The translations under genes were made by a program, and so were the position numbers. Under the pieces are notes generated by a model. The model worked only from the letters and a program-made list of their open reading frames with translations, was not told where the DNA came from and did not search any database. From positions 1-14,727 of the forward strand of contig JASFEA010000081.1 in the NCBI GenBank assembly GCA_050125095.1: a DNA stretch of 14,727 nt, read 5' to 3'. This DNA comes from a bacterium (GTDB lineage: Bacteria > Arandabacterota > Arandabacteria > Arandabacterales > JALGWA01). Below are positions 1-14,727 of the stretch, in pieces. Every line of letters starts with the position of its first letter. Position 1 is the stretch's first letter.

Positions 1-140
1 GCCGCGGCGCTCGCTGAGGCCTTCGAGGCCGTCCCGCGGTTCGGCTGCTCAGATTGTACTTGCACTTCCCACCTGTTCCGGGTACGCACAGAATTGAAAC
101 CGCAATTTACAGAAGAAGACAGATTGCCAGGAGGTAATGC

Positions 141-3011
141 ATGAAACCCGCCGCCCCTGTCGCAGCTGCCGCGATTACTATACTGCTCATGATCCCGCTG
201 ACGGCCCCGCCGCCCTCGCTTGCCCTCAAGGCCGAGCAATACGAAGCCTTCGACGAGGCCATACGCGGGGCCTTGCTCAACATGGGCATGACGCCCGCCG
301 ACATGCGAATAAGGCATGACTACGCCGAGCCCGACAAGTTCCGGCTCGCTATAGTCGACTCCCTCATGCACAACCCCGCGAGCCTGCTTGAGCAGGTCGA
401 CCGGCTCGCTTTGAAAGTCGAGCGCAGCGCGGCGGCGTGCGACCTCTCTTCCATGCTGTGGAGGGCCATGGATATCGAGCCCGCGACAGCGGTCGAGACG
501 GGTGAGGTCCCCAGGGTGAGAAATGTGGCGGGCCGCCTCAGGCATCTGCCTGGGGACACCCGGGTCCACCTGGAAGAATACTTGAGCAGTCTGGGGCGCA
601 TGTCCCGGCTTCTCGAGAGGGCGCGCGGGCCCTTGCGGGACCATGTCGACTTTCTCGAGACGGAGGCCTCGGCGCTGGTGACGCCCAAGGCCGAATACGA
701 AGACCTGGGGCCGTTCGAGCTCCATGACATCGAGGAGATGGAGTCGGCGCTTGCCGACTCAGTTCTCAGCCTGAGCGAGCTCGTCAACCTGCCCGAGCTC
801 GCAGGCATGTGCGCACTCGGCATGAAGTCCGCAGAAGATCTCGCAGCGGGGCTCGGGCCCGCAACGGTGGATATCGGCGACCATGCACGCTACGGCGATA
901 AGTCGGTGTCATTTAACGGTATGGAATGCAGCGTAACCGGGAAGGTAGCCTACTTCGGCATGACGGCGTACGGTCCGATCGTAGTAGGTGGCCCCTCCGA
1001 CAACACTTACACGGGCTGCTTCGCCCTCATCGCGGACCTGGGCGGCAACGACAGGTACACGCTGCACAGCCACCCCGACGTCAACTTCCGGCTCATAATC
1101 GACTACCATGGCGCGGATATTTACGAGTCACTGGACCAGACCGGCGTCGCCGGCATCAGGTTCGGCACGTCCGTTCTGATTGACCTCGAGGGCGATGACA
1201 CTTACAGAGCCGCCGACATGTCACTGGGCTCGGCAACTTATGGCGGCGCCCTGTTATACGACGTGAGGGGCGACGACATCTACGAGGCGGGAGCATTCTC
1301 CCAGGGCGCGGGTTTCCTGGGCGTCGGCGCCGTCGTGGACGGCGAAGGCAACGACAACTACACCGCCGGCATGCAGTCCCAGGGTTTCGGCTACGTGATG
1401 GGCTCGGGGCTCATACTCGATAAGACCGGCAACGACACCTACTACACCAGGATGTCGCAGAAAGACATATTGCGCTATGAGGACCACTACCTCACCCTTT
1501 CCCAGGGCTGCGCCTTCGGGGCCAGGCCCGACTACTCAGGCGGCATCGGGCTTCTCATCGACCTCAGGGGGAACGACCTCTACTACAGCGACATATTCGG
1601 CCAGGGCGTCGGCTACTGGTTCTGCGTGGGCGGCCTCATCGACAGGCAAGGGCATGATTATTACTGTTCATACCAGTACGCCCAGGGTGCCGGCGTTCAC
1701 CTGGCATTCGGGCTCCTCGTCGACGAACAGGGAAACGACTTCTACCAGAGCAAGGGCGTATCCCAGGGCTGCGGGCACGACCTCTCGCTCGGGCTCCTGG
1801 CGGATTTCTCCGGCAACGACTGCTTCACAGTCACCGACCTCAGCCAGGGCGCCGGCAATGCCAACGGCACCGGCATCATCTTCGACGCGGACGGCGTGGA
1901 CTCATACTCCTCCAAGAACAGGACCAATGTCAGCGGCTACGGCAATTTCCGCCGGGAGTTCGGCAGCATCGGCCTGCAACTCGACCTCGTGGGCCGGGAC
2001 TACTACTCGGCCCGGGGGCGGAACGACGCCCTGTGGGAAAGCGGCCAGTACGGCCTCGGGATGGACATACCCGGCGAGGCCGCCAGGGCAGATGGCGATA
2101 TCCTCATCGACGAGTCAGGCCTCATCGAACGGGATTACACCCCCCCGGAGCTCTTCATCCTGGCCTCCAGGGGGGAGCCGCGCTTCAGACAGTGGCACGA
2201 ATACGGCTTCGAAGCCATGGTTGAAGACACGGCCTCGACAATCGAATATCTCCGCACCGTGCTTGACACCAAAGTGGCAAGGGAGCGGCACACCATAAAG
2301 GATATACTGCGAGCGATCGGCAGCCCTTCGGTTGGCATGCTGTCGGCATCGGTGCTCGAAGACAACGACCTCGCCAAATCCGAGGCGAGCTGGATACTCG
2401 GTCTCATAGGCGACGCCGGGGCCTTCGACGCGCTCATACATCTCTCGCGCGCGCCCGGCTGGAAGCAGAGGTCGAGCGCGCTCAACGCTCTCGCCAAACT
2501 CAGGGACCTCTCGGCCGCGCAGAGGGACGCCCTGGAAGCGCGCGCAAAGCAAGTCCTGGATGACCCGGATGAGGTCTTCTATGTCAAGAAGGACGCGGCT
2601 TACGCTGCCGGGAGGCAGGAATTGACAGGCGCACTCCCCCGGCTCATGGAGGCGCTGGAGAGCGACCATTACTCGGTGCGCTACGCATCGGCCGAGGCCA
2701 TGCGCGGCCTCTCCCTGGAACACGGGGACGAAGTCTACCGCGGTCTGCGCGGGAGAATAGGCGGCTTTTCGAGCCTGGCCACGGTGGGCGCGCTATACGC
2801 CGCGGGCGCCCTCACCGACAAGCAGAAGCTGGCCATAATAGACGAGGTGCTGGACGGCGGGTATTCAGGTGATGCTCATGTGGCGGTGGCGGCCGCCAGG
2901 CTCCTCGCCACTGTCGGTGAGGGCCGAAACCGCGAGAGGCGCGAGACGAGACTCCTTGCCGCAGTCCCGGAAGAGTCCTGGCAGGTCCGGGCTATGCTCG
3001 AGGGCGAGTAG
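141..3011 (+). CDS. Secreted multi-domain protein: Sec signal peptide, acidic helical N-domain, ~13 tandem ~26-aa Gly-rich repeats (beta-solenoid-like), and C-terminal HEAT/PBS-lyase-type repeats. Function unknown.
   Basis: Longest ORF in the window, with AGGAGG 5 nt upstream of the ATG at 141. The N-terminus MKPAAPVAAAAITILLMIPLTAPPPSLALKA is a Sec-type signal peptide. Residues ~285-640 carry periodic motifs SDNTY, GGNDRY, HGADIY, EGDDTY, RGDDIY, EGNDNY, TGNDTY, RGNDLY, QGHDYY, QGNDFY, SGNDCF, DGVDSY and GRDYY, each preceded by an SQGxGxxxGxGLLxD-type segment. Residues ~740-940 show paired-helix repeats such as ALIHLSRAPGWKQRSSALNALAKL and LMEALESDHYSVRYASAEAMRGL, typical of HEAT/PBS-lyase repeats. 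No catalytic motif recognised. Confidence 0.8.
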   Translation: MKPAAPVAAAAITILLMIPLTAPPPSLALKAEQYEAFDEAIRGALLNMGMTPADMRIRHDYAEPDKFRLAIVDSLMHNPASLLEQVDRLALKVERSAAACDLSSMLWRAMDIEPATAVETGEVPRVRNVAGRLRHLPGDTRVHLEEYLSSLGRMSRLLERARGPLRDHVDFLETEASALVTPKAEYEDLGPFELHDIEEMESALADSVLSLSELVNLPELAGMCALGMKSAEDLAAGLGPATVDIGDHARYGDKSVSFNGMECSVTGKVAYFGMTAYGPIVVGGPSDNTYTGCFALIADLGGNDRYTLHSHPDVNFRLIIDYHGADIYESLDQTGVAGIRFGTSVLIDLEGDDTYRAADMSLGSATYGGALLYDVRGDDIYEAGAFSQGAGFLGVGAVVDGEGNDNYTAGMQSQGFGYVMGSGLILDKTGNDTYYTRMSQKDILRYEDHYLTLSQGCAFGARPDYSGGIGLLIDLRGNDLYYSDIFGQGVGYWFCVGGLIDRQGHDYYCSYQYAQGAGVHLAFGLLVDEQGNDFYQSKGVSQGCGHDLSLGLLADFSGNDCFTVTDLSQGAGNANGTGIIFDADGVDSYSSKNRTNVSGYGNFRREFGSIGLQLDLVGRDYYSARGRNDALWESGQYGLGMDIPGEAARADGDILIDESGLIERDYTPPELFILASRGEPRFRQWHEYGFEAMVEDTASTIEYLRTVLDTKVARERHTIKDILRAIGSPSVGMLSASVLEDNDLAKSEASWILGLIGDAGAFDALIHLSRAPGWKQRSSALNALAKLRDLSAAQRDALEARAKQVLDDPDEVFYVKKDAAYAAGRQELTGALPRLMEALESDHYSVRYASAEAMRGLSLEHGDEVYRGLRGRIGGFSSLATVGALYAAGALTDKQKLAIIDEVLDGGYSGDAHVAVAAARLLATVGEGRNRERRETRLLAAVPEESWQVRAMLEGE
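940..2120 (+). repeat. Protein-level tandem repeat array inside the 141..3011 CDS: ~13 units of ~26 aa (~78 nt), consensus ...SQG-x-G-x3-G-x-G-L-L-x-D-x2-G-[ND]-D-x-Y.
   Basis: Counted directly in the translation. Spacing between successive G[ND]DxY motifs is 26-27 residues, with one unit carrying an insertion. The units are divergent at nucleotide level, so they are ancient rather than recently duplicated. Confidence 0.6.
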
Positions 3012-3041
3012 CGGGAACTTAACGGATTTCCGCAGAAGGTC

Positions 3042-3584
3042 CTAGCCCCGCGCACGCAGCGCCTCGCCCAGGGCCTCATGATAGACGTCCAGGTCGTCAG
3101 CCCCGAAGAGCACGAAAATGACCTTATCCAGGCTGGTCGCATCGCCAAAGTGATCGAGAACCGCGTCCACGGCGACGCGGGATGCCTTCTCTATGGGGTA
3201 CCCGTAAACGCCCGTGCTGATCGACGGAAAGGCGATGGTCTTGAAGCCGCGATCCACAGCAAGCGCGAGGCTCTTGTCATAGGCGCTTCTCAGCAGCCCC
3301 TCTTCCCCCTTATCTCCCCCCCGCCAGACCGGTCCAACGGTGTGAATCACATAGGCCGCCGGGAGATTGCCGGCTGTCGTGATCACCGCCTCGCCCGTGG
3401 GGCATCGGCCGATCTTACGGCATTCCGCCATTATGGCCGGCCCGCCGGCCCGGTGTATGGCCCCGTCCACCCCGCCCCCGCCCCTGAGGCCCTCATTGGC
3501 GGCATTGACTACGGCATCCGCTATCACCCGGGTGATGTCGCCGTTGAAGAGCTCTATGAACCTGCCGTTGTATTCGAAGTCCAT
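3042..3584 (-). CDS. Macro-domain protein (Appr-1-p processing / O-acetyl-ADP-ribose deacetylase, YmdB-like)
   Basis: The motif NGDITRVIADAVVNAANEGLRGGGGVDGAIHRAGG is the macro-domain ADP-ribose-binding signature, followed by VITTAGNLPAAYVIHTVGPVW. GGAGG sits 8 nt upstream of the ATG at 3584. The ORF stays open to another ATG at 3614 that has no Shine-Dalgarno, so 3584 is the preferred start. Confidence 0.85.
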   Translation of the reverse strand: MDFEYNGRFIELFNGDITRVIADAVVNAANEGLRGGGGVDGAIHRAGGPAIMAECRKIGRCPTGEAVITTAGNLPAAYVIHTVGPVWRGGDKGEEGLLRSAYDKSLALAVDRGFKTIAFPSISTGVYGYPIEKASRVAVDAVLDHFGDATSLDKVIFVLFGADDLDVYHEALGEALRARG

Positions 3585-3634
3585 TTCATCTACCTCCCCC
3601 CCGCACAATATCATTTTCCCGAACCGTTTTCAGC

Positions 3635-3663
3635 TTGACATTGATCTAAACTAATACTAATAT
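3635..3663 (+). promoter_or_regulatory. Sigma70-type promoter, TTGACA(3635-3640)-17 nt-TAATAT(3658-3663), driving the rrf2-ferredoxin-cooS operon
   Basis: Perfect -35 hexamer, optimal 17-nt spacer, and a 5/6 -10 hexamer (TAATAT) ~20 nt upstream of the AGGAGA RBS and the ATG at 3683. The surrounding region is AT-rich in a GC-rich genome. Confidence 0.5.
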
Positions 3664-3676
3664 AGTATCAGTTTAG
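3646..3676 (+). promoter_or_regulatory. Imperfect palindrome CTAAACTAATACT-aatat-AGTATCAGTTTAG (13-5-13, 12/13 arms pair) overlapping the -10 box; candidate Rrf2 autoregulatory operator
   Basis: The inverted repeat is read directly from the sequence. Rrf2 regulators (IscR, NsrR) bind AT-rich palindromes overlapping their own promoters. Its position between the -35 box and the RBS fits a repressor site. Confidence 0.4.
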
Positions 3677-3682
3677 GAGACT

Positions 3683-4099
3683 ATGATGAAACTGCTGACC
3701 AAAGACACGGATTACGCGGTGAGGGCCATCGTCCATCTCGCCCGCAACCCCGACGGCTACCAGTCCTCGCGCGAAATTGCAAAGGCCGAGGGCATACCTC
3801 TTCAGTTCCTGAGGGCCATACTCCAGAGGCTTACAAAAGAGGGCCTGATCGTCTCGCGCGAGGGAGTCAGGGGCGGCGTTAAACTCAAGGCCAGGCCCCG
3901 CGACGTGCGGGTGAGCGACATCATAAGGATTTTCCAGGGCGATATAGAGCTCTCCGAGTGCATGTTCAGGAAAAAACTCTGCTCCAACCGGTCCACCTGT
4001 GTTCTGAGAGCGAGAATAAAGTCAATCGAAGAGATGGTGAACAGGGAATTCGAGAAGGTGACGATTGCGAAATTGATAGACGACCTGGGAGGAAAATAA
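3683..4099 (+). CDS. Rrf2-family transcriptional regulator (IscR/NsrR-like, probable Fe-S cluster sensor)
   Basis: The N-terminal wHTH signature MKLLTKDTDYAVRAIVHLA and SSREIAKAEGIPLQFLRAILQRLTKEGLIVSREGVRGG match Rrf2. Three Cys at C93, C100 and C106 (C-x6-C-x5-C) sit where IscR and NsrR ligate their Fe-S cluster. RBS AGGAGA precedes the start, and the stop overlaps the next start (TAATG). Confidence 0.85.
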   Translation: MMKLLTKDTDYAVRAIVHLARNPDGYQSSREIAKAEGIPLQFLRAILQRLTKEGLIVSREGVRGGVKLKARPRDVRVSDIIRIFQGDIELSECMFRKKLCSNRSTCVLRARIKSIEEMVNREFEKVTIAKLIDDLGGK

Positions 4100-4938
4100 T
4101 GAAAAGAGACATGATACATATCGACGACGAGAAATGCGACGGGTGCGGGGCCTGCATACCCAATTGCCCGGAAGGCGCGATCCAGATTATCGACGGCAAG
4201 GCCCGGCTCGTCGGGGAGGCGCTTTGTGACGGGCTCGGCGCATGCGTCGGATTCTGCCCGCGGGGGGCAATGACCGTGGAGACGCGCGAGGCCGAGGCCT
4301 ATGACGAGCGCAAGGTGATGGCCAACATAGTGAAGCAGGGCATAAACGTGGTCGCGGCGCATCTCAGGCACCTTGACGACCACGGCCTGGTTTCATACCT
4401 GAATGAGGGTCTCGAGTATCTCAAGCAACACGGCATCGAGATTCCGGACTACAAGCGGCCTCCGAGGGGAGCGGGGGTCTCCCCCTGCAGTTGCGAGGGG
4501 TGGAAACCGCCCGAGCGGGAGGGCGCCTCAGCGACGTCCCGTACAGGCTCGCTCGCGTCCGAACTGAGGCAATGGCCGGTGCAGCTCAAGTTGCTCCCGA
4601 CCAGCGCACCCTATTTCCGGAACGCTGATCTTCTCATCGCCGCCGATTGCGTGCCGTTCGCGCATGGCGGCTTCCACGGCGACCTTCTTAAGGACAAGGC
4701 CGTAATCATGTTCTGCCCCAAGCTCGACCAGGGCATCGAGGATTACATAGAGAAGCTCGCCCGCATATTCGCGGAAAACGACATCAGGTCCATAACGATC
4801 GCGCATATGGAGGTGCCGTGCTGCTTCGGCACCAATCGCGTCATCGAGCAGGCGCTCAAGATGTCGGGTAAGAACATCCCGGTTGAGACGAAGGTCATTT
4901 CTATTCAGGGAAAGGTCCTTGAGACCCGGTCCTGTTAA
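4099..4938 (+). CDS. Iron-sulfur protein: N-terminal 2x[4Fe-4S] ferredoxin domain plus a ~170-aa Cys-rich C-terminal domain of unassigned family; likely electron-transfer partner of the downstream CooS-like enzyme
   Basis: Start ATG at 4099 with GGAGG 6 nt upstream, overlapping the rrf2 stop. The 5' ORF extension back to 3958 overlaps rrf2 and is rejected. CDGCGACIPNCPEGAI and CDGLGACVGFCPRGAM are two CxxCxxCxxxCP ferredoxin motifs. The C-terminal domain carries conserved-looking Cys at SPCSCEGW, AADCVPF, MFCPKLD and VPCCFG. Confidence 0.75.
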   Translation: MKRDMIHIDDEKCDGCGACIPNCPEGAIQIIDGKARLVGEALCDGLGACVGFCPRGAMTVETREAEAYDERKVMANIVKQGINVVAAHLRHLDDHGLVSYLNEGLEYLKQHGIEIPDYKRPPRGAGVSPCSCEGWKPPEREGASATSRTGSLASELRQWPVQLKLLPTSAPYFRNADLLIAADCVPFAHGGFHGDLLKDKAVIMFCPKLDQGIEDYIEKLARIFAENDIRSITIAHMEVPCCFGTNRVIEQALKMSGKNIPVETKVISIQGKVLETRSC

Positions 4939-4977
4939 GAGGTCAATCCGCGAAGGCGCGGGAAAAGGAGGCTCACA

Positions 4978-6912
4978 ATGGAAGGCCAGAGGATATCTCA
5001 TCACGAGTCCGTAAAGAAGGCTTATGAGAGAATCAAGAATGACGGCATGAACAACATCTGGGACCGATACGAGGCGCAGGGGATGGGCGGCAACCCCGAC
5101 CAGAGATGCGCGTTCTGCCTGGCGGGCACGCGCTGCGACCTCTGCTCCAACGGTCCCTGCCGGGCCGACGCAGCCAAGGACAAGCGGGGCGTCTGCGGCA
5201 TAAAGGCGGACGGCATGGCCATGCGAATGATGCTGCTCCGAAATGTCATGGGGGCGTCTACGTACCAGTACCACTGCGACCAGACCGTGAAGACGCTGCG
5301 CCTGACGGCATTGGGCGCGACGGACTACCGGATCCGTGAGCCCGAAAAACTCAAGACATTCGCCAAACGCCTCGGCGTGGACACCTCCGGATCGACAGAG
5401 GATACGGCCATCCGGCTCTGCGACTTCGTGCAGAGCGACTTCAATCGCAGCTACCAGGAGCCCAGCAAGGTGGTGGAGGCGCTGGCCCCAGAGGAGCGCA
5501 AGATACTCTGGAATGAGCTCGGCATATTCCCCGGCGGCATACATGGCGAGATAATGTTCTCGACGAGCTCATGTCTCACCAATGTTGACGGCTACTACCT
5601 GAGCCTGGCCCTCAAGGCGATGCGGCTCGGCGTCGCCATGGCCTACCAGAGCCAGATCGTGAACGAATACCTGCAGGACGTCCTCTTCGGCATTCCGCGG
5701 CCGCACAAGGTCAGAGTGGACCTCGGCGTGCTCGACCCGGAATACGTCAACATCCTCCCCAACGGCCACGAGCCCTTCCTCGGCTTCGCGATGGTTGAGC
5801 TCGCGCGGCAAGAGGAGTGGCAGGAAAAGGCGAAGGCTGCCGGCGCCAGGGGGATGAGGATAATAGCCAATATCGAGACAGGCCAGGAGATGATACAGCG
5901 CTGGGAGATGGACGATGTCTTCTACGGCTTCACAGGCAACTGGATAATGCAGGAAGCGGTGCTGGCCAGCGGCTGCGTCGACCTCTTCGCAGCGGACATG
6001 AACTGCTCGATGCCCGTTGATCCAGAGTATGCCGAAAAGTACAAGTTCAAGCTCATACCGGTGAGCGAGCTGGTCGCCTTCGAGGGTGTTACGGATAGGA
6101 TAAACTACATTCCTGAAAAGGCGAAGGAACAGGCGGGGATGCTCCTCGACATGGCCATCGCGAATTTCAAGGAGCGCAAGGGCCGCGTCGAGCCCATTAC
6201 CGGGCTCAGAATGCATGAAGCCATCGCCGGCTTCTCCACCGAGAGCATACTCGAGGTCCTGGGCGGAACGCTTGATCCGCTTCTTGACGCGATCAAGGCC
6301 GGCTCGCTGCGCGGCGTGGTCGGCCTCGTCTCATGCACGTCCCTGAGAGACAACGGCCAGGATGTGCATACGGTCAGGCTGGCCGGGGAACTCATCAAGC
6401 GGGATATCCTGGTGCTGTCGCTGGGCTGCGGAAATGCCGCGCTGCAAGTCGCGGGGCTCTGCAGCCCGGAGGCGAAGGAACAGGCGGGGCCCGGGCTCAA
6501 GGCCGTATGTGAGGCCCTGGGGGCCCCTCCCGTGCTGAGCTACGGCACATGCACCGACACCGGGCGGCTGGCCGACCTGCTTGCGGCCATATCCGGTGCC
6601 CTGGGCGGCGTCCCGATCAAAGACCTGCCGGTGGCCGCGGCGGCGCCCGAGTACATGGAGCAGAAGGCGACCATCGACGCGATCTTCGCCCTGGCACTGG
6701 GCCTTTACACCTATGTCAACCCAGTGCCCACGGTAACCGGCGCGCCCGACCTGGTCGGCCTCCTCACCGAAGGCTGCAAGGAGGTGACGGGCGGCGTACT
6801 CGATGTCGAGCAGGACGCGGTGAAGGCCGCCGACAACATCCTTGCGCATATCGAGAGCAACCGCGCCAAACTCGGGCTGGACGGCGCGAAGGCGGCCCAG
6901 AGCGCGGATTAA
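4978..6912 (+). CDS. cooS: Anaerobic Ni-CO dehydrogenase catalytic subunit family (CooS / hybrid-cluster-protein superfamily), divergent member
   Basis: AAGGAGG sits 6 nt upstream of the ATG. Strings characteristic of CooS by eye: NIWDRYEA, GVCGI, NGHEP, AGFSTE, GLKAV, LGCGNAA and SYGTCTD. N-terminal Cys pattern is C44-x2-C47-x5-C53-x2-C56-x4-C61-x11-C73, consistent with a CxxC D-cluster type plus B-cluster ligands. C-cluster ligand positions are present (H264, C343, C453, C484, C525), except that the canonical Cys after the His reads I299-E300. Confidence 0.8.
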   Translation: MEGQRISHHESVKKAYERIKNDGMNNIWDRYEAQGMGGNPDQRCAFCLAGTRCDLCSNGPCRADAAKDKRGVCGIKADGMAMRMMLLRNVMGASTYQYHCDQTVKTLRLTALGATDYRIREPEKLKTFAKRLGVDTSGSTEDTAIRLCDFVQSDFNRSYQEPSKVVEALAPEERKILWNELGIFPGGIHGEIMFSTSSCLTNVDGYYLSLALKAMRLGVAMAYQSQIVNEYLQDVLFGIPRPHKVRVDLGVLDPEYVNILPNGHEPFLGFAMVELARQEEWQEKAKAAGARGMRIIANIETGQEMIQRWEMDDVFYGFTGNWIMQEAVLASGCVDLFAADMNCSMPVDPEYAEKYKFKLIPVSELVAFEGVTDRINYIPEKAKEQAGMLLDMAIANFKERKGRVEPITGLRMHEAIAGFSTESILEVLGGTLDPLLDAIKAGSLRGVVGLVSCTSLRDNGQDVHTVRLAGELIKRDILVLSLGCGNAALQVAGLCSPEAKEQAGPGLKAVCEALGAPPVLSYGTCTDTGRLADLLAAISGALGGVPIKDLPVAAAAPEYMEQKATIDAIFALALGLYTYVNPVPTVTGAPDLVGLLTEGCKEVTGGVLDVEQDAVKAADNILAHIESNRAKLGLDGAKAAQSAD

Positions 6913-6942
6913 AGACGCCTGACCCTTTGAGCCGATCTGAGC

Positions 6943-6983
6943 GGGGCGGTCCCCCGGGGGCCGCCCCCATACATTTGGTATTG
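6943..6983 (+). terminator. Probable intrinsic terminator after cooS
   Basis: GC hairpin GGGGCGG-t-CCCCC/GGGGG-CCGCCCC at 6943-6967, 30 nt after the stop, followed by CATACATTTGGTATTG. The T-tract is imperfect. Confidence 0.45.
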
Positions 6984-7030
6984 TCTCGGCGCACTTATTG
7001 TGTTACAAATGCCCCTAGCGGAGGTTGTTT

Positions 7031-7333
7031 ATGATCCTGGATGAACTTAAGGGCGAGATAGTCCTCATCAAGCTCAAGAGCCATGAAGAGCTTGAGACCT
7101 TCGGCGTGCCTTCCTCCAGTATTTACGCCAAGGTGATAGAAATCGACGAGCGCGTGGGCGTCTGGGTGGAGAATCCCAAGTGGTCACCAAAGAAGACCGC
7201 CAAGGAAGACGCGGAGCATATGACCCAGATCCTGATCCGGTGGGAATACGTCGTGGGTTTAATGACATTCCCGGACAGAGAGGGATTCAAGGAGGAAGCG
7301 GAAATAAAGCCCATGGGTTTCGTTACCAAGTAA
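7031..7333 (+). CDS. Hypothetical small cytoplasmic protein (100 aa), no recognised domain
   Basis: GGAGG at 7020-7024 sits 6 nt before the ATG at 7031, so the TTG at 7025 from the ORF track is unlikely. No signal peptide. Local GC (~52%) is below the window average. Sequence MILDELKGEIVLIKLKSHEELETFGVPSSSIYAKVIEIDERVGVWVENPKW... Confidence 0.5.
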   Translation: MILDELKGEIVLIKLKSHEELETFGVPSSSIYAKVIEIDERVGVWVENPKWSPKKTAKEDAEHMTQILIRWEYVVGLMTFPDREGFKEEAEIKPMGFVTK

Positions 7334-7437
7334 TCCTATCCGCGTAACCCTCCCGGCGAAACTCTCTCTTTAAGATCCCTGTCGCGGCGAGGTTCCGGGG
7401 CGTTTGCCTCTTTCCTGCAGCCTTTACATGTCTGTCA

Positions 7438-9177
7438 CTACCTGGCTATGACCACCTTGGCCGTCAGCGCCTCAGCGCCCGTATCAAGGCGCAGGAAGTA
7501 GATGCCGGAGCTCAGGCTGCCGGCCAGGGAACCCGTGGCATTCCAGCCGAGCTCATGGTACCCCTCTTCCCTGCGGCCGTTGACCAGGTCGCGGATATGC
7601 CTGCCGGCCACGTTGTATACCCCGATCCTCACATCGGCGGCCGCCGGAAGCCCGAAAACGATGCTGGTGCTCGACGTCAGGACGCTGCCGCCGGCGACTG
7701 TAAGAACGACCCTGTCAGGAATACCCGCTAGGTCCCCGCCTTCCACGCCCGAGGTCGAACCCCAGAGCGTGAAGTCGGAGTCGCTGGCGTCGGACGCCTC
7801 GTTGGGTACGCCATCGAACGCCACGACCTTTATTCTCGCGGTCTTCGAGTCCATGTCGGGCACCGTCCACATGAAAGACCCGTCATTGACCTCGCCCTGT
7901 GCCAGCGTGTCGGAATAGGTCACTCCTCCGTCGGTCGATAGCACTATGGTTATGCCCGTTATGCGCGCGTTATCGCTCGCCGACCAGGTGATTTCTTGAT
8001 CCGTGTTGTACTCCAGGATCTCGCCGCCATTGGGCGAAGTAAGCTCGACCTCAGGCGGGATGGGGTCCCGCTCTACCACGGGAACCACCGCGAAATCGGG
8101 ATCGCCCGCAAAACGCATACACTCGTTGAGGCCGCATGACGGAACGTCCGCGTTGGCCATCAGGAACGCGTCGCGTACGCTGTATCCCTGGTCCATGTAA
8201 TTGAAGAGGGCGGCCTGCCACATAATGGACTCGGTCCAGCAATTGGCGCACCACGTCTCCGCCATATGGCAGTAGCCAACGGTGGTAGTCGCCTCCCAGG
8301 AGCCCTTGCGGAATGCGTCGGAGAACGACCCGCTGAGGGTGTCGCACATGCCCTCACAGCTTCCCAGAAACGTAAAAGGCATCTTGGCCCGGTTGGCGAT
8401 CCACAGTTCGACTTTGAAAGAGCCGATATCCAGACCGCTTGAACCGTCGCAGCCGTACATGAAGCTGGTCGACCCGCCGTGGTTGAGCTCGTAGAACATG
8501 GCAGTGTGGTCCGACTTGACGTGTCCCCTGATCTGCTCGAGCGTCGGCCACTTGACTCCCTCGGTGGTATAGCCCATGTTCTCAAACCAGGTCTCGGCGT
8601 TCTGGTACCAGCTCGTCCAGGCGCCGTAGTATGGACACTCCCAGGGTCCGGTGAAAGAGAAGCCCTCGGTCGGCGGCGGCACGCCGTCCCCGAGCAGGGC
8701 CCCGGTTGCCGCGTTCACCACCTTTACGACCAGGCGGCCGTCCACGATGCTGCGCACCACCCAGCACGGGTCCGTGGGCGCGGGCTCCAGCGGGAATACG
8801 GCCGACTCGGGGGAGATATAATACAGCCTCGAGAACTGAATCTCGCCGCCCACAGTCGCCTCGGCATCTTCCCGTGATATCAGGCCGGCGGGAAGCGTCT
8901 CCGGGAGGCCGTCCCGCCAGTTGTATCGCCTGTCGAGCAGCTCTCCGGTCTCCCTGTCGAACTGGTAGACGATATTGTCCAGCTCCACGGCTGCCTCGCC
9001 GATCATCCGCTGATGGTAGTATACGATCTTGTCGCCGAACACGCCCTCCCGGAAGGCGCGGTCACCCGACTCGTACTTGCTGAGAAGACCCATAGCCGCG
9101 GACGCGCTGTCCAGCGATACGAGGATCGCAAGGGCGACGAGCGCGGTTACTGCCATATACCTCTTACAAGACTCCAT
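7438..9177 (-). CDS. Secreted Cys-rich putative cysteine peptidase (clan-CD-like His-x41-Cys dyad; tentatively legumain/gingipain/clostripain-type) with a conserved pre-CTD beta-sandwich domain and a Por/T9SS type-A C-terminal sorting domain
   Basis: AGGAGGT sits 7 nt upstream of the ATG at 9177 (MESCKRYMAVTALVALAILVSLDSASAA is a signal peptide). The ORF stays open to 9207 without an RBS. NHGG followed 41 residues later by FTFLGSCEG has the His-Gly...hydrophobic-strand-Cys geometry of caspase-fold peptidases (legumain has H148/C189). The C-terminal ~90 aa (IVFGLP...VRIGVYNVAGRHIRDL...GYHELGWNA...SGIYFLRLDTG...TAKVVIAR) match the T9SS CTD pattern. Confidence 0.75.
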   Translation of the reverse strand: MESCKRYMAVTALVALAILVSLDSASAAMGLLSKYESGDRAFREGVFGDKIVYYHQRMIGEAAVELDNIVYQFDRETGELLDRRYNWRDGLPETLPAGLISREDAEATVGGEIQFSRLYYISPESAVFPLEPAPTDPCWVVRSIVDGRLVVKVVNAATGALLGDGVPPPTEGFSFTGPWECPYYGAWTSWYQNAETWFENMGYTTEGVKWPTLEQIRGHVKSDHTAMFYELNHGGSTSFMYGCDGSSGLDIGSFKVELWIANRAKMPFTFLGSCEGMCDTLSGSFSDAFRKGSWEATTTVGYCHMAETWCANCWTESIMWQAALFNYMDQGYSVRDAFLMANADVPSCGLNECMRFAGDPDFAVVPVVERDPIPPEVELTSPNGGEILEYNTDQEITWSASDNARITGITIVLSTDGGVTYSDTLAQGEVNDGSFMWTVPDMDSKTARIKVVAFDGVPNEASDASDSDFTLWGSTSGVEGGDLAGIPDRVVLTVAGGSVLTSSTSIVFGLPAAADVRIGVYNVAGRHIRDLVNGRREEGYHELGWNATGSLAGSLSSGIYFLRLDTGAEALTAKVVIAR

Positions 9178-9225
9178 GTGCCGACCTCCTAATCCCTCAG
9201 CCTGCAAGCCCAGACAGCCGCATCA

Positions 9226-9253
9226 ACTATCCTCAAAAAGGACAGTGCGTCAA
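9226..9253 (-). promoter_or_regulatory. Candidate sigma70 promoter for the downstream protease gene (minus strand TTGACG-16 nt-GATAGT)
   Basis: On the minus strand, TTGACG (revcomp of 9248-9253) is followed after a 16-nt spacer by GATAGT (revcomp of 9226-9231), ~50 nt upstream of the RBS and ATG at 9177. Only 4/6 match in the -10 box. Confidence 0.3.
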
Positions 9254-9317
9254 GACGCCGTCATGCCCTCTGCCTACAGTGTGCCACAGCGGGCGAGTTA
9301 AGCAAGCGCCGCGTCGG

Positions 9318-9416
9318 TATAAATCGAGACAAATTCGAACCAGGCTTGGTGGAGGATGGGCGCCCCATGCCTTGCTCCTCGTATTCTGTGTGGTCTTCCC
9401 CGGCGACCCATCCTCC
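9318..9416 (-). terminator. Large stem-loop immediately 3' of the upstream protease gene, followed by a U-rich tract; candidate terminator or attenuator
   Basis: On the minus strand the 14-bp stem GGAGGAUGGG-u-CGCC...GGCG-CCCAUCCUCC (arms 9351-9364 and 9402-9416, 10 perfect plus 4 bp with a one-nucleotide bulge) encloses a 37-nt loop and begins 10 nt after the stop at 9427. It is followed by a small ACCA-agcc-UGGU hairpin and UUCGAAUUUGUCUCGAUUUAUA. Confidence 0.35.
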
Positions 9417-9426
9417 AAATGCACTT

Positions 9427-11910
9427 CTACCAGGCAATAACAATCTTGGCCGTTGCTTCACCTCCATCGCTATTGAGCCTTAAGAAATAGATACCAGGGC
9501 CAAGCCTGCCTCCCGCCTCAGTTCTCAAATCCCAGGTTATGTGATGATATCCCGCCTGCCTCTGCCCGCTCATGACGGCTGCAACGCGGCGGCCCGCCAC
9601 GTCGTAGCAGTCTATACTCGCGCGGGAAGGTGACGGCAAACCGAATTCGATCTTCGCAGGCGCGCCGGCGAGCGCGCCGCCCTCCACGCTTATCGAAACC
9701 GCGTCCGGAACGCGCGGGGCGTCGGGGTCGTCGACTCCGGACTGGTAACCCCAGAGCCTGAAATTCGCGTCGCTCTCGTCCTCGCCCTCATTCGAGGCGG
9801 CGTCGCGCGCGACGATCCTAATGCGCGCGACACCGCAGTCGATATCGGGGGCGTACCACGAATAGACCCCGTCGTCTGCTTCGCCCGAGGCGATCGTGTC
9901 GGGGAAGGTCACGCCACCGTCGGTGGAGAGCAGTATGCATACGGACGTAACGCCTATGTTGTCGGAGGCCGTCCACTCTATGTCATAGGTCGAGCCGAAG
10001 TGGAAGACTTCGCCGCCGTTCGGGCTGGCAACTGTCACGGCGGGCGGCTCTAAGTCTATTACGGCCGATTCGCAGGACCTGACGGCGACATCGTCGATGG
10101 CCGCTTCCACGATTGATCCGGGAGAGGAGTCCTGGGCCACGAACCTGAACTTCATCTGGCCGGTGAGCTCGACGTAGTCCTCGAGATAGAACTCCTTCTT
10201 CGTCCAGGCCCTTCCGCTGTATGAAAGCGTCTCGAGATTCTGCCAGGTCGCCCCGTCATCGCTCGACACGTCCACCACGAAGTCGTCGTCATTGGGGCCG
10301 GATCCCGTGTCGCTGGCGTACCACCTGTAGTAGGTCAGAACCGCCGAGTCGACATCGGAAAGGTCGACGGCCGGGCTCACGAGCGTTGTCCGGCCCCCGT
10401 CCACGTCATAGGCGCCCTGCGAATCGCCGGGATTGGACTGCTGCGTGAAGAAGCAGGTCGTTCCCGTCCCCGGCGTGTGGTCGTCCCCGGGCTGTACTTC
10501 CTCCGGTCCCCAGTAAGTGGCGTTGGGGTCGCCGCGCTCCCACATCCCCGTAACGGCCCCGTCGCCGGGCGCCCCGGAGGTCCACCCCAGGTCGGACTCG
10601 AAGTCATCTTCGAATACAGTTACGACTTCGCCTCCCTGCAGCACGAGTGCTCTGGTGGAACTCCCCTGGTCGGATGTTATCTCAATCTGGAAAACGAGCG
10701 CGCCGCAGGCCTGCGCCGAAGCGTCAACGGCAAAAGAAAAATGGGGACTGTATGATTCGAGCACCGCTCCCTTGTCTATATCGGGGTAGGCCGCCACGCT
10801 ATCGGTCACCGTGACGGAGCCTAGCGTGCTCCGGAGCGTGGCGCTTACATTCGTGGCGGTCTCCGCGCCGATATTGAGAAGCCTGACCGCCAGTATGACG
10901 GGCTCACCGGGCTCGATGTCGCCGTCTCCGTCGCCGGCGCTGTCGTCTATCGTATGGGAGTCATGGAAGAAGTGAACCGTCTGGCCGGGCGTGTAGTTGA
11001 GGGCGTCCGTGGCATAGCCGATATAGCTCGCGCCGTACTTGATGTACATATAGCCGCCGTCGCCCCAGTCGGGCCCCCACGAGTTCTTCATGATCCAGGC
11101 GCCGTCACCGCCGCACATGGTGTCGTCCCAGCCCACGAGCAGCACGCCATGGTTGATCTCGGTGCAGTTCTCCTCATAGCAGCCCCCGGTGTAGGAGCTG
11201 AATCCGCCGCATACCGCGATGGCGCAGGCCACCGGCCCTTCAAGCAACGCCGTCTTTATGGCCAGGACGGTGTCGTCGACATAGTAGTAGGAGTCGAGAT
11301 ACGCCGCCACGTCGCATGAAGAGACCGCACATGCCTCGGTGTCGTTCTCGTGATACGGCATGCACGACTCCCTGACGCCTCCCTGAGTGATGAACAGGTC
11401 ATATGCCGTTTCCATCCAGCCTCCGCTGCAGTCGTCGCCATTGGGGTTGCATACAAGTATGGCCTGCTCTGAGAGGTCCTCTTCCAGACCGCTGTAGATA
11501 AGGATCCGGGACTCGAGAGCCGCGGCCGCGCAAAAAGCCCAGCAGCTCCCGCAGTTGCCCTGGTTCTTGACTGGAGTCACTCCGCCCTGCGTCCGCCAGT
11601 CGAATGAAGACGGGAAGCTCATTCCTTCAGGAGCGGTTATGAGGCGGCCGTCGAGCGCGGCTCTCCGCCTGCGCTCCTGGAGGTCGGGCGGCAGCCTGAG
11701 GCCGAGGAGGCGCTGGAACTCCTCGTCGGTGAGCCGCGAAACCGAGGTCCGGCCCGCCGTCCACGAATACCCTTCCTCCTCAATATTCCGGTTTATGCGG
11801 TCGATCTTGGCCTGCTCGGCCTCCGGGGACAGCTCCGCCCGGAGGCAGGTCCCAGGCCAGACCGCGGCCAGTAGATACACGAGTACTGCCACGATAGCGG
11901 TCGATTTCAA
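9427..11910 (-). CDS. Secreted papain-family (C1A) cysteine peptidase with CARDB-like domain, MAM-like domain, conserved pre-CTD beta-sandwich domain and Por/T9SS type-A C-terminal sorting domain
   Basis: Papain catalytic signatures are present: Q in KNQGNCGSCWAF (Cys148), INHGVLLVGWDD (His280), NSWGPDWGDGGYMYIKYG (Asn/Trp). FEDDFESDLGW...GMWERG...DDHTPGTGTTCFF...RFVAQD...IDDVAV resembles a MAM/jelly-roll domain. The C-terminal IEFGLP...IDCYDVAGRRVA...GYHHITWDLR...PGIYFLRLNSDGGEATAKIVIAW is a T9SS CTD. The ORF is open to a TTG at 11988 with no RBS. A TTG at 11910, preceded by AAAGGGGCGG, gives a canonical signal peptide MKSTAIVAVLVYLLAAVWPGTCLRA, so the start is uncertain between 11910 and 11988. 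Confidence 0.8.
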   Translation of the reverse strand: MKSTAIVAVLVYLLAAVWPGTCLRAELSPEAEQAKIDRINRNIEEEGYSWTAGRTSVSRLTDEEFQRLLGLRLPPDLQERRRRAALDGRLITAPEGMSFPSSFDWRTQGGVTPVKNQGNCGSCWAFCAAAALESRILIYSGLEEDLSEQAILVCNPNGDDCSGGWMETAYDLFITQGGVRESCMPYHENDTEACAVSSCDVAAYLDSYYYVDDTVLAIKTALLEGPVACAIAVCGGFSSYTGGCYEENCTEINHGVLLVGWDDTMCGGDGAWIMKNSWGPDWGDGGYMYIKYGASYIGYATDALNYTPGQTVHFFHDSHTIDDSAGDGDGDIEPGEPVILAVRLLNIGAETATNVSATLRSTLGSVTVTDSVAAYPDIDKGAVLESYSPHFSFAVDASAQACGALVFQIEITSDQGSSTRALVLQGGEVVTVFEDDFESDLGWTSGAPGDGAVTGMWERGDPNATYWGPEEVQPGDDHTPGTGTTCFFTQQSNPGDSQGAYDVDGGRTTLVSPAVDLSDVDSAVLTYYRWYASDTGSGPNDDDFVVDVSSDDGATWQNLETLSYSGRAWTKKEFYLEDYVELTGQMKFRFVAQDSSPGSIVEAAIDDVAVRSCESAVIDLEPPAVTVASPNGGEVFHFGSTYDIEWTASDNIGVTSVCILLSTDGGVTFPDTIASGEADDGVYSWYAPDIDCGVARIRIVARDAASNEGEDESDANFRLWGYQSGVDDPDAPRVPDAVSISVEGGALAGAPAKIEFGLPSPSRASIDCYDVAGRRVAAVMSGQRQAGYHHITWDLRTEAGGRLGPGIYFLRLNSDGGEATAKIVIAW

Positions 11911-12001
11911 TAAACCGCCCCTTTCCAGGCCCGGCAACGGGGACTCCCGCTCACGGAAAGCCCGATAATATATATCTTTACGAATCAATTATACCACAAT
12001 A

Positions 12002-12034
12002 AGGGGCGCTCTCTCAAGCGACTTGTGCGCCCCT
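12002..12034. other. Nested GC hairpin AGGGGCGC-tctct-CAAG-cga-CTTG-t-GCGCCCCT in the divergent intergenic region, within or upstream of the C1A protease 5' leader
   Basis: Perfect 8-bp outer stem and 4-bp inner stem read directly from the sequence. On the minus strand it is followed by UUAUUGUGGUAUAAUU, which is terminator- or attenuator-like. Function unknown. Confidence 0.3.
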
Positions 12035-12318
12035 CTACTCCCGACCATCCCAAGTCGACCCGCTGAGGTAAATTATTGAATAACAAGCCATTAAGTATAT
12101 TAATATCGTTCCATACAGGGCTGCTGGGCGCCCTTCTATACCCATTGCAGCCCCCCACCACCCCGATATACCATTCATTAAGACTGTGAAGGCCCTGAGG
12201 GCCCCTGAAGCGGGCATTTGAGGCGAGCCCCGTCCCCCAATCCCGCGCGGGTCTTGACCCGGTGTCCTGCATGTGCTAGATATGATTTGCGGCTCTAACC
12301 ACATTGAGGAGGCTTGGA

Positions 12319-13455
12319 ATGGCAAGGTACCTGGCGATATCGGGCATATTAATCCTGGCAGCAGCCTTTATTCAGGGGTGCGGCGGCGATGACGGCGGGG
12401 TCGGCGTTACCATACCGGCCGTAACCGCGACCGTACCGGCGGACGGGGCAACCGGGGTAGCCATGAATACCTCAATATCCGTCACTTTCTCGCGCGAGAT
12501 GGAAGCCTCCACGCTTGATTCGATTTACGTGAACGGCCGGGCAGCATATCGGGTAGTCTACAACAACGCACAGAAAACGGCGACGGCCTACCTCGACAGC
12601 ATGCTGGGCGCCCAGACCGTATGCCAGGTGAAGGTATCGTCTTATTGCATGGACAAGTCGGGCAACAACCTGAGCGGCGACCATGAATTCAGCTTCACGA
12701 CGGGTGATTTCGGCTGCGACGAGCTGGAGGACCCGTTCGCTGACAATATGTCCATCGCGACGGCGGCCGAGGTGGATTTCAACACCAGATACAAGCTCCT
12801 GCCGAGCTGCGGAGGCCAGGGCGCCATGCATTACTTCAAGCTCGTCCTCTCGCAGGCCACCATGATCACCGCCAAATACAGGATTATAGACGCCGATACC
12901 ACCCAGGTTAGCTGGAGGCTCTATTTCAAGCGGGCCGACGAGGAAGACTACACGAGCCAGGGCTCGAGTCCCGTCGTTGCGGACCACCATGAGTACAGCA
13001 TGCGCTATTCATTCCTTCCCGGTACCTACTACATCAAGACCGGCAAGGAAGAAGACACCGGCCATACGGCGGTCTATGAGATTGAATTCGAGGACTCGGA
13101 AGCCTGCGCCGACGACGCTTATGAAGACAACGATTTCTTTGACGAGGCCACGCCGGTCACGCCCGGCACCCTCGAGAATCTCCGGTCATGTTATACAGAC
13201 GACGACTACTACTCCATAGACCTTACGACGGGGCAGACCATCACTGTGACTCTGGACGCCCCGGGAACCTCTGGCACGCTGCGAAGGGTCTGGATATACA
13301 ATCCCAGCAATATGGAGATGGGGCGTTATAACGGTTACGGCAACCCGGTTGTCCTGGAGAGAACCGCCTATATGGACGGGACCCACTACGTGTGTTCTCG
13401 CTGGTGGATAGATGACGTGGACTATAACCTGACAATCGAGGTGACGGGACCCTAG
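12319..13455 (+). CDS. Lipoprotein with N-terminal SbsA-type Ig-like (Big_5-like) domain and two PPC-like (pre-peptidase C-terminal-type) beta-sandwich domains
   Basis: GAGGAGG sits 6 nt before the ATG at 12319, so the TTG at 12304 is rejected. MARYLAISGILILAAAFIQGCGG is a signal peptide plus lipobox-like Cys. VTATVPADGATGVAMNTSISVTFSREMEASTL matches the Big_5/SbsA Ig-like motif. Two segments match the PPC pattern D-x-[YF]-E-x-N-D...A-x-[IV]...D-x-D-[YW]-[YF]: DPFADNMSIATAAEV...AMHYFKL and DAYEDNDFFDEATPV...DDDYYSIDLTTGQTITV. Confidence 0.75.
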   Translation: MARYLAISGILILAAAFIQGCGGDDGGVGVTIPAVTATVPADGATGVAMNTSISVTFSREMEASTLDSIYVNGRAAYRVVYNNAQKTATAYLDSMLGAQTVCQVKVSSYCMDKSGNNLSGDHEFSFTTGDFGCDELEDPFADNMSIATAAEVDFNTRYKLLPSCGGQGAMHYFKLVLSQATMITAKYRIIDADTTQVSWRLYFKRADEEDYTSQGSSPVVADHHEYSMRYSFLPGTYYIKTGKEEDTGHTAVYEIEFEDSEACADDAYEDNDFFDEATPVTPGTLENLRSCYTDDDYYSIDLTTGQTITVTLDAPGTSGTLRRVWIYNPSNMEMGRYNGYGNPVVLERTAYMDGTHYVCSRWWIDDVDYNLTIEVTGP

Positions 13456-13501
13456 GACCGGCGCATCAGGAGACATTAAGCCGGGATCTGCCCCCTGGTG
13501 C

Positions 13502-13559
13502 ATGTGCATCCTGAGACCTGACCCCTGAGGATGTGCATTTCAAGACCTGACCCCTAGCG
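13502..13559. repeat. Two immediately adjacent 29-bp direct repeats (ATGTGCAT-N4-AGACCTGACCCCT-N4) between convergent genes, preceded by an additional GTGCATGTGCAT
   Basis: Unit 13502-13530 is ATGTGCATCCTGAGACCTGACCCCTGAGG and unit 13531-13559 is ATGTGCATTTCAAGACCTGACCCCTAGCG, identical at 21 of 25 core positions. The second copy overlaps the hflK stop codon, and a T5 run follows. Confidence 0.4.
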
Positions 13560-14600: not shown

Positions 14601-14621
14601 CCTGTCACCTTCAAGTTCTTC

Positions 14622-14727
14622 TTATCTCTCCTTGAAGAGCCTCAATAGCTCAGAGTCGGTGGAGAGAACGACCGTCGTCTTGCTGTTCAGGAACTTCTCG
14701 TACGCCTGGAGGGTACGCGTGAGCTTG
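14622..14727 (-). CDS. hflC: 3' end of hflC (partial, runs off the window edge)
   Basis: The minus-strand frame ends ...KLTRTLQAYEKFLNSKTTVVLSTDSELLRLFKER-stop, closely paralleling the E. coli HflC C-terminus ...SLQAYEKSFSGNQDVMVLSPDSDFFRYM. The stop lies 21 nt upstream of the hflK start. Gene order here is hflC then hflK. Confidence 0.55.
   Translation of the reverse strand, partial: KLTRTLQAYEKFLNSKTTVVLSTDSELLRLFKER

Follow-up and report, generated by a model that had tools for sequence, protein, structure and literature searches.

A CooS-V-type enzyme in the operon position of the hybrid cluster protein, behind a predicted NsrR-like Rrf2 repressor and its palindromic operator

Introduction

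Clade D ‘CO dehydrogenases’ are abundant in Bacteria and Archaea and are still annotated as carbon monoxide dehydrogenases (CODHs), which distorts inferences about CO metabolism from metagenomes. What such an enzyme does in the cell, and which signal its gene answers, is the question raised by a locus on contig JASFEA010000081.1 (assembly GCA_050125095.1) from a bacterium of the Arandabacterota. The stretch of DNA analysed (positions 1 to 14,727 of the forward strand; 14,727 nt), referred to here as the window, carries at positions 3635-6912 three genes, all on the + strand, which encode in this order an Rrf2-family regulator (rrf2), a protein with a Fer4-type ferredoxin domain (frdX-like), and a member of the CODH/Prismane family that resembles CooS-V of Carboxydothermus hydrogenoformans (cooS-V).

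The answer proposed here is that an NsrR-like Fe-S repressor of the Rrf2 family probably autoregulates a detoxification module of the kind built around HCP, the hybrid cluster protein, and that CooS-V has taken the place of HCP in this module; we assign this reading a probability of about 0.7. It draws on gene order and translational coupling, on the position and conservation of an operator, on the conservation of cluster ligands, on the clade of the enzyme and on the sharing of one operon slot by HCP and CooS-V, all of which are observed in the window or in related loci. The locus and its relatives offer a regulator-operator pair, a conserved candidate redox partner and a natural exchange of HCP and CooS-V, and for the physiological role of CooS-V-type enzymes they would yield a testable proposal from genomic context.

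An enzyme of the CooS-V type

The cooS-V gene (4978-6912, + strand) encodes a 644-residue protein that scores 726.2 bits against the NCBIfam CooS model TIGR01702 (cutoff 478) and 25.8 bits against the HCP model NF003658/TIGR01703 (cutoff 367). Its closest relative of known structure is C. hydrogenoformans CooS-V (7B7Q/7B95), which is matched over the full length with 693 bits; the next CODH follows at 393 bits. In the alignment, the enzyme has Glu at the position of the C-cluster ligand Cys295 (IETGQE vs CCTGNE in canonical CODH), leaving the C-cluster ligand set incomplete, as well as Tyr in place of the acid-base His93, a CxxC-type D-cluster site created by a change of Gly41 to Cys (RCAFCLAGTRC), and Glu two residues ahead of the catalytic Lys (E-Q-K in YMEQK). 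These residues reproduce the pattern H-E-C-C-C-C / Y-K of structural group D-1, as defined by Inoue 2019 (PMC6344411), and all features of the CooS-V subclade and of group D-1 are present in the window enzyme. The HCP-like active-site substitution noticed in a preliminary description of this DNA corresponds to this Glu in place of Cys295, which CooS-V has as well and which recurs in 84 of the 84 relatives that were fetched. By its residues, the window enzyme is assigned to the CooS-V type and not to canonical CooS. CooS-V neither oxidises CO nor reduces CO2, is devoid of a Ni cluster, and contains a redox-morphing Fe/S/O hybrid cluster that is HCP-like (PMC9311411).

Taken at face value, the annotation would mean that the operon encodes a genuine CO-oxidising CooS, a ferredoxin-type acceptor for its electrons and a regulator of a new kind that responds to CO or to redox state. 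The CooS equivalog is indeed passed (726 vs 478 bits), public records label the enzyme CODH, and M. acetivorans genetics, according to the passage of PMC6344411 that cites them, hinted at a role for D-1 enzymes in oxidising CO. However, the Ni,Fe-cluster ligand Cys295 and His93 are replaced by Glu and Tyr, the characterised CooS-V has no Ni cluster or CO activity, and the C295E variant of CODH-II loses both Ni and activity (PMC9311411, PMC6344411). Moreover, a Pfam domain search of the window found no gene for CooC, CooF, a hydrogenase (ECH) or ACS, and a domain search found neither CooA (CRP-family) nor RcoM domains encoded there, so the locus is not a cooS locus of the CooA or RcoM type. Given also that orthologues of its regulator and electron carrier serve true hcp genes elsewhere, as described below, CO oxidation is a very improbable function for this operon.

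Enzymes of this type are widespread. A scan of genome contigs returned at least 584 loci with a CooS-V relative, of which the best 80 were kept (L012-L091; loci are cited by such L numbers throughout). In these 80 the CooS-V-type genes are 74-81% identical to the window enzyme, and they are spread across Asgard archaea, Bathyarchaeia, Thermoplasmata, methanogens, Dehalococcoidia, Acidobacteriota, WOR-3 and others. Among their neighbours, a small open reading frame (ORF) with a Cupin_2 domain directly adjoins CooS-V recurrently (11 of 98 flanking ORFs) and, in Methanofastidiosum and Thermococci metagenome-assembled genomes, stands between the ferredoxin gene and cooS-V (L050:4617-4937, L058:4611-4931, L067:4610-4930 and L080:4615-4935). 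Rubrerythrin and glutaredoxin genes are occasional neighbours.

A compact probable operon with a putative operator over its promoter

The arrangement of the three genes is compact. A promoter scan placed a -35 hexamer TTGACA at 3635-3640 and a -10 hexamer TAATAT at 3658-3663, both on the + strand. This promoter had been called perfect; its -35 hexamer and 17-nt spacer leave nothing to object to, but the -10 hexamer agrees with the consensus at 4/6 positions, and with 10/12 consensus matches overall TTGACA-17-TAATAT is a good promoter and not a perfect one. A TTGAC-type hexamer is conserved at equal distance in orthologous loci. The rrf2 gene (3683-4099, + strand; an ORF matching PF02082) encodes 138 residues, or 137 from a second ATG at 3686, and the latter is more likely to be the start, because the Shine-Dalgarno sequence AGGAG read at 3675-3679 (+ strand) lies 6 nt before it and the database protein P0001 has 137 residues.

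The last A of the rrf2 stop codon TAA (4097-4099) is also the first base of the frdX-like ATG (4099-4101), and this TAATG overlap at 4097-4101 bears out the translational coupling that had been pointed out in the compact operon. The frdX-like gene (4099-4938, + strand; an ORF with a Fer4 match) encodes a 279-residue Fe-S protein with a ferredoxin domain and an AF_0155-type domain, and 39 nt separate it from cooS-V. A terminator scan of the window called no + strand terminator upstream of 6912. RNA folding gave a GC-rich hairpin with an 11-bp stem at 6943-6967 (+ strand), 31 nt after the cooS-V stop codon, which has no canonical U-tract, was not called by the terminator scan, and is a possible end of the operon. 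As judged from this layout, rrf2, frdX-like and cooS-V would constitute a single operon with one sigma-70-type promoter, a part of the reading graded above. A further promoter-like sequence, TTGATA-16-AATAAT (10/12), is present at the end of rrf2 (4073-4100, + strand); it is probably a chance match, as its -10 element overlaps the TAATG junction and the frdX-like start, which a transcript from it would miss.

The -10 hexamer is covered by an inverted repeat at 3646-3676, with arms at 3646-3659 and 3663-3676 and a 3-nt gap. It had been described as a 13-5-13 palindrome; its position on the -10 box is as described, and the repeat, counted as 14/3/14, has 13/14 positions paired and a sole mismatch of A3653 vs G. 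The right arm ends within the Shine-Dalgarno sequence, and the -10 box forms the central hexamer. A conserved 25-bp core, AACTAATACTAATATAGTATCAGTT, occupies 3649-3673, and the consensus of the family, derived from 110 nt of upstream sequence per orthologue, is AACTRATACTA-N3-TAGTATYAGTT. At up to 3 mismatches the window contains a single match to the 23-mer core, and 0 of 200 dinucleotide-preserving shuffles contain one.

The preliminary description proposed that the palindrome be looked for in other genomes, and there it is found over the -10 box upstream of the Rrf2 orthologues examined from several phyla, including the lineage of the window, Omnitrophota, Chlorobaculum and others. Across 885 kb of fetched loci, sites with up to 4 mismatches occur once per locus, upstream of Rrf2 orthologues, and nowhere else. 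A scan of JGI metagenomes with the operator query ACTRATACTANNNTAGTATYAGT returned 70 loci, in ~44 of which an rrf2 gene starts within ~60 nt of the operator. The central hexamer reads TAnnnT across 35 non-redundant orthologous sites, and in 29 of these 35 a -35-like hexamer precedes it by 16-17 nt (the value for the window was taken from the promoter scan); therefore, the invariant C-TA...TA-G core of the operator appears to double as the -10 element. An operator so placed would have the classic geometry of repression by promoter occlusion, and the position of rrf2 as the first gene behind it implies autoregulation.

It might be argued that an AT-rich repeat has arisen here by chance, or that the palindrome serves the divergent Macro-domain gene at 3042-3614, with which rrf2 has a 68-nt intergenic region in common, and some 24 of the 70 metagenome matches are indeed without a recognisable Rrf2 or HCP neighbour. 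However, the site is kept beside rrf2 in loci without an adjacent Macro gene (L006, L008, L010, L092 and L093), no shuffled sequence reproduces it, and its register to the -35 hexamer is fixed, all of which makes this explanation hardly credible. A role of the palindrome as a terminator was also considered and rejected, as both flanking genes diverge from it.

HCP and CooS-V in one regulated slot

If the regulator belongs to an HCP-type module, its orthologues should be found with HCP-type genes. The linkage of the regulator to an enzyme of this kind was assessed in loci retrieved by homology and in those from the metagenome scan. Among nine Rrf2 homologues looked up (~50-88% identity), eight are encoded directly upstream of a Prismane-family gene. 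Those with 74-88% identity come from the window's own lineage, where the loci are syntenic. In more distant loci the enzyme differs: rrf2 is followed by the same ferredoxin protein and a 554-residue protein on an Omnitrophota contig (L006), by the ferredoxin protein, a TPR protein and a 542-residue protein in Chlorobaculum sp. MV4-Y (L008), by a 559-residue protein in another lineage (L010), and by proteins of 442 and 428 residues in L092 and L093. All five downstream genes encode true HCP (677-847 bits against NF003658, cutoff 367), and the two short ones, of 442 and 428 residues, match class III HCP in length.

A similar picture was obtained from the metagenomes, where 21 loci were informative in that they combine an Rrf2 orthologue of at least 44% identity with sufficient downstream DNA. 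In 20 of these 21 a Prismane-family gene follows rrf2, namely hcp in 16 (class I or class III, with or without the ferredoxin gene) and ferredoxin plus CooS-V in 4. In the remaining one (L100:649-2633, - strand) rrf2 and the ferredoxin gene are followed by a hemerythrin-like ORF (PIGPLMIEHRLIERM...) and no Prismane enzyme. The concern, raised in the preliminary description, that these Rrf2 orthologues might adjoin unrelated genes is not borne out, as they stand with Prismane-family genes down to ~50% identity. The edge of the HCP-linked group is marked by L094 (4961-5408), where the Rrf2 is 44% identical and the operator is kept (AAATGATACTAATATAGTATCATTA) but the Prismane linkage is gone; an 83-residue ORF, a Rex-like gene and Fe-S/NADH-dehydrogenase-like genes lie downstream. 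In four further metagenome loci (L123:1981, L137:1805, L142:7744 and L163:4248) the operator stands directly before hcp with no intervening rrf2, and therefore the regulator can probably act in trans on hcp promoters.

A neighbour-joining tree built from 52 Rrf2 sequences, without support values, groups the CooS-V-linked regulators in one subclade nested among HCP-linked ones, suggesting that hcp was replaced in situ by cooS-V once. On this evidence the same regulator, often with the same ferredoxin protein, appears to serve HCP in other phyla and CooS-V in the subclade of the window, and the presence of both enzymes in the same regulated slot argues for an equivalent function. The autoregulated CODH/HCP-type module put forward in the preliminary description is thereby supported, both by the Prismane genes that follow Rrf2 orthologues and by the conservation of the palindrome over the -10 box.

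A second, unrelated Rrf2 clade (~28% identity) was observed directly upstream of CooS-V-ferredoxin operons in WOR-3-type genomes (L026:1050, L032:48, L042:4511, L076:4500 and L087:4563). It has a conserved palindrome of its own, CTTACT-N5-AGTAAG, between TTGACA and TAAGAT, and the start codon lies ~7 nt past the -10 box, so that the transcript looks leaderless. Rrf2 control of CooS-V therefore seems to have arisen at least twice.

The FrdX-like protein as candidate redox partner

The second gene had been described as encoding a 2x[4Fe-4S] protein. The ferredoxin domain is confirmed, while a full second ligand set is not: the domain has only 7 Cys, and its second motif, C-D-G-L-G-A-C-x3-C-P, offers three Cys and an invariant Asp (C43-D44...C49...C53). 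In addition, the C-terminal half is an extra domain with five invariant Cys (132, 184, 206, 241 and 242), which brings the invariant Cys of the protein to positions 13, 16, 19, 23, 43, 49, 53, 132, 184, 206, 241 and 242. A precomputed Pfam table identifies this C-terminal domain as PF27217 (AF_0155). It is well predicted (predicted local distance difference test, pLDDT, 85-98) in an AlphaFold2 model built from a 48-sequence alignment, for which the overall pLDDT is 78. Foldseek found no structural relative of the model in the PDB below E = 0.03, a PDB sequence search matched the ferredoxin domain only, and a literature search on AF_0155/PF27217 turned up nothing relevant.

By homologue search the family is very large. 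An frdX-like gene adjoins the CooS-V-type gene in 22 of the 80 genome loci and lies within 2.5 kb of it in 2 more; these pairings come from Asgard archaea, Bathyarchaeia, Thermoplasmata, methanogens, Dehalococcoidia, WOR-3 and others, with frdX-like either upstream or downstream. Homologues with 50-73% identity, depending on the domain, also stand between rrf2 and a true hcp (L006, L008, L112, L127, L140 and L164). Because its pairing with CooS-V recurs in both domains of life and it is paired with true HCP as well, the FrdX-like protein fits a dedicated redox partner of CooS-V and HCP.

The regulator and a proposed mechanism

Membership of the Rrf2 family is clear from PF02082 (115.1 bits, cutoff 30) and TIGR00738 (103.6 bits, cutoff 73.3). 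The translation of 3683-4099 contains the motif C-x6-C-x5-C, as had been noted earlier, which places the protein in the Fe-S-binding subgroup. A search returned 136 homologues at E <= 1e-3; in the best 120 of these the three Cys are invariant (120/120) and the Asp10 position is 99% conserved. The closest solved relative found in the PDB is NsrR of Streptomyces coelicolor (5N07), with which Cys93, Cys100, Cys106 and Asp10 align at the ligands Cys93, Cys99, Cys105 and Asp8. The second-best match is 4CIC, deposited as a BadM/Rrf2-family regulator, which we take to be Thermincola potens IscR. The IscR models TIGR02010 (60.9 bits, cutoff 207.55) and NF008110 (40.3 bits, cutoff 275) and the RirA model are all below their cutoffs, and Arg replaces the IscR-type His three residues past the third Cys (C-V-L-R). 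The protein would thus belong to an unnamed Rrf2 subfamily with NsrR-like ligation, outside NsrR proper. JGI calls some orthologues ‘cysteine metabolism repressor’; CymR was rejected as an assignment, as NF047409 gives 45.9 bits vs a cutoff of 195.

A mechanism can be proposed, with predictions on DNA binding, the type of cluster, the inducing signal, electron transfer by the FrdX-like protein and the substrate. The regulator would act as a repressor and as a homodimer carrying an Fe-S cluster, for which the predicted ligands are Cys93, Cys100 and Cys106 and, from the other subunit, Asp10, in the way known from S. coelicolor NsrR. The cluster-bound form would occupy the 25-bp palindrome, with the -10 box at its centre, and thereby block RNA polymerase. 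Cluster damage, for which nitrosylation is the most likely cause and oxidation or loss of the cluster the alternatives, would free the operator of its repressor and so induce rrf2, frdX-like and cooS-V. The FrdX-like protein and CooS-V would then operate as a reductase pair in which the former hands over low-potential electrons, and the CooS-V-type enzyme would serve in the role of HCP, as an Fe/S/O hybrid-cluster enzyme and not as a CO dehydrogenase, in the reductive removal of small N-O or O species such as nitric oxide (NO) or hydroxylamine.

Weighing the evidence and its implications

Several points weigh against this proposal. The favoured view of the regulator, the operator and the enzyme is derived as a whole from sequence. 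The NsrR equivalog NF008240 gives the regulator 53.8 bits vs a cutoff of 182, and its best specific NCBIfam match is the SUF regulator model TIGR02944, at 82 bits and under the cutoff. The identical 23-nt operator core is also found ahead of Rrf2 genes of a distant clade (24-37% identity) at the head of suf operons (L103, L131, L133 with the site at 1597-1619, L149 and L153), in which sufC-, sufB/D-, sufS- and sufU-like genes follow, as named from ORF translations and not by a profile search; therefore, the motif alone is not specific to a nitrosative-stress regulon. In one orthologous rrf2-ferredoxin-cooS-V locus (L033:3600-3716) the TTGACA is intact but the operator that follows it, AAACTGTGAGTGAAATGGTATAAGTTT, is degraded, with 6 mismatches, which may reflect relaxed control in that lineage. 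Most CooS-V genes, in ~70 of the 80 genomes, have no Rrf2 neighbour, and the tree on which the single replacement rests carries no support values. The likeness of the FrdX-like protein to the named FrdX is one of operon position, its pairings paralleling the frdX-hcp arrangement of Desulfovibrio and Clostridia. Finally, purified CooS-V reduces NH2OH slowly and its NO reductase activity was undetectable (PMC9311411), and the functional equivalence of CooS-V and HCP is unproven.

The suf-linked operators lead to a different view of the regulator, namely as an IscR/SufR-like sensor of Fe-S supply that would match the output of FrdX-like and CooS-V or HCP to the availability of clusters and would not respond to NO. 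Besides the shared operator core, the TIGR02944 score and the second PDB match to 4CIC are consistent with such a sensor. However, the scores for TIGR02944, IscR and RirA are all below cutoff, the position of the IscR His107-type ligand is taken by Arg, and the N-terminal Asp of the NsrR type is 99% conserved. The tree also separates the HCP/CooS-V-linked clade from the suf-linked one, and no suf or isc neighbours were found among the examined loci of the former. On balance, sensing of Fe-S supply is unlikely to be what this regulator does.

Alternatively, the same operon and repressor could answer a redox, O2 or peroxide signal, in the manner of RsrR or HypR, with the enzyme pair removing an oxygen-derived oxidant. 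The [4Fe-4S] clusters of Rrf2 proteins are O2-labile, and the occasional rubrerythrin and glutaredoxin genes near CooS-V are in keeping with this. HCPs are also peroxidases (PMC6344411), and the cluster potentials of CooS-V are ~300 mV below those of E. coli HCP (PMC9311411). Against such a signal, the HypR model gives the regulator 24.8 bits vs a cutoff of 180. RsrR uses Glu8 and His12 as ligands, and ligands of this type are missing from the N-terminus of the window protein. The partners of its relatives, HCP and a hemerythrin-like protein, are typical nitrosative-stress genes (PMC1274295). An oxygen-derived signal, too, is improbable, and the preferred reading continues to be that of an NsrR-like repressor of an HCP-type module.

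A broader form of this proposal, which we advance tentatively and at somewhat less than even odds, is that the unnamed Rrf2 subfamily is a dedicated repressor of HCP operons in many anaerobic phyla, that HCP gave way to CooS-V in situ in one branch, and that the AF_0155-type protein is the missing electron donor. If true, D-1 CODHs would be analogues of HCP in the defence against nitrosative or redox stress. The electron donor of class I HCP has been described as unknown (PMC10210160; Lemaire et al.), and hcp was found without a syntenic partner by Lemaire et al.; the AF_0155-type Fe-S protein could then be the missing dedicated donor for both D-1 enzymes and class I HCPs. In addition, the operator motif can be used to flag putative HCP/CooS-V operons in uncultured anaerobes.

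Flanking genes

The Macro-domain gene (3042-3614, - strand) is divergent from rrf2 and 68 nt away, and because only these 68 nt lie between the two genes, its promoter must overlap the operator region. This adjacency varies in relatives: in L012 and L003 the two genes are 350-1100 nt apart. Past the hairpin, a conserved ORF of ~100 codons (7031-7333, + strand) has its own GGAGG ribosome-binding site and no Pfam match; its synteny (62-95% identity) was found only in the lineage of the window (L001-L005, L012 and L033). Farther downstream, the region 7438-11988 (- strand) encodes large proteins in which papain-like peptidase, Big_7 and FlgD_ig domains occur.

Comparison with known systems

The module is related to several systems that have been described, and the combination proposed as new here is that of an NsrR-like Rrf2 and a new operator motif with an FrdX/HCP-type module in which CooS-V takes the place of HCP. 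In the literature searched, neither the Rrf2-operator-FrdX-like-CooS-V module nor an exchange of HCP and CooS-V in one slot was found, a search for Rrf2 with hcp in Chlorobi gave nothing relevant, and one with the operator sequence gave primers and unrelated matches only.

With NsrR the window Rrf2 has in common the fold family, the three-Cys spacing and the position of the N-terminal Asp (as compared with 5N07), a palindrome that overlaps the promoter, predicted repression, and HCP-type targets, E. coli NsrR controlling hcp-hcr. It differs in that it is not an orthologue, is encoded by the first and presumably autoregulated gene of the enzyme operon itself, and occurs in anaerobic uncultured phyla. 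The window operator probably also differs from the published NsrR motifs. In enterobacteria, NsrR regulates hcp (PMC1274295).

The frdX-hcp operons of Desulfovibrio and Clostridia, under HcpR of the CRP/FNR family, likewise combine a ferredoxin-like Fe-S protein and a hybrid-cluster enzyme with a dedicated local regulator. They are induced by NO, and C. difficile needs both genes to tolerate it (PMC12915319, PMC1274295, PMC545781). In the window, by contrast, a predicted repressor of the Rrf2 family stands in place of the CRP/FNR activator, and the scaffold of the enzyme is that of CooS and not HCP.

A module of this kind under an Rrf2 regulator had been called undescribed for canonical cooS loci, which holds for clade D-1 and for this architecture and fails for clade C, where genes of COG1959 (Rrf2/NsrR-IscR-like) are known upstream of cooS-cooF-FNOR clusters (PMC3082573, PMC4703632, PMC6344411). 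Those clusters also place an Rrf2-family gene before a cooS-family gene and an Fe-S protein, but their enzymes are C-1/C-2 CODHs with the full Cys set of the C-cluster, their partners are CooF and the flavoprotein FNOR, and they have no defined operator or link to HCP. For clade D itself, a 2026 survey of genomic context reported mostly solitary genes or uninformative surroundings, with transcription regulators in ~10% that were not discussed further, and stated that proof of a role in stress is lacking (eLife 2026, PMC13056359); Inoue 2019 listed COG1063 and HypAB as the only associations of D-1 and speculated on an HCP-like function (PMC6344411).

The nearest characterised enzyme is CooS-V of C. 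hydrogenoformans (7B7Q, 7B95 and 7B97), with which the window enzyme has in common Glu295, the CxxC-type D-cluster, Tyr at the His93 position and Glu before the catalytic Lys. What the window gene has in addition is a defined regulator, a predicted operator and a candidate redox partner.

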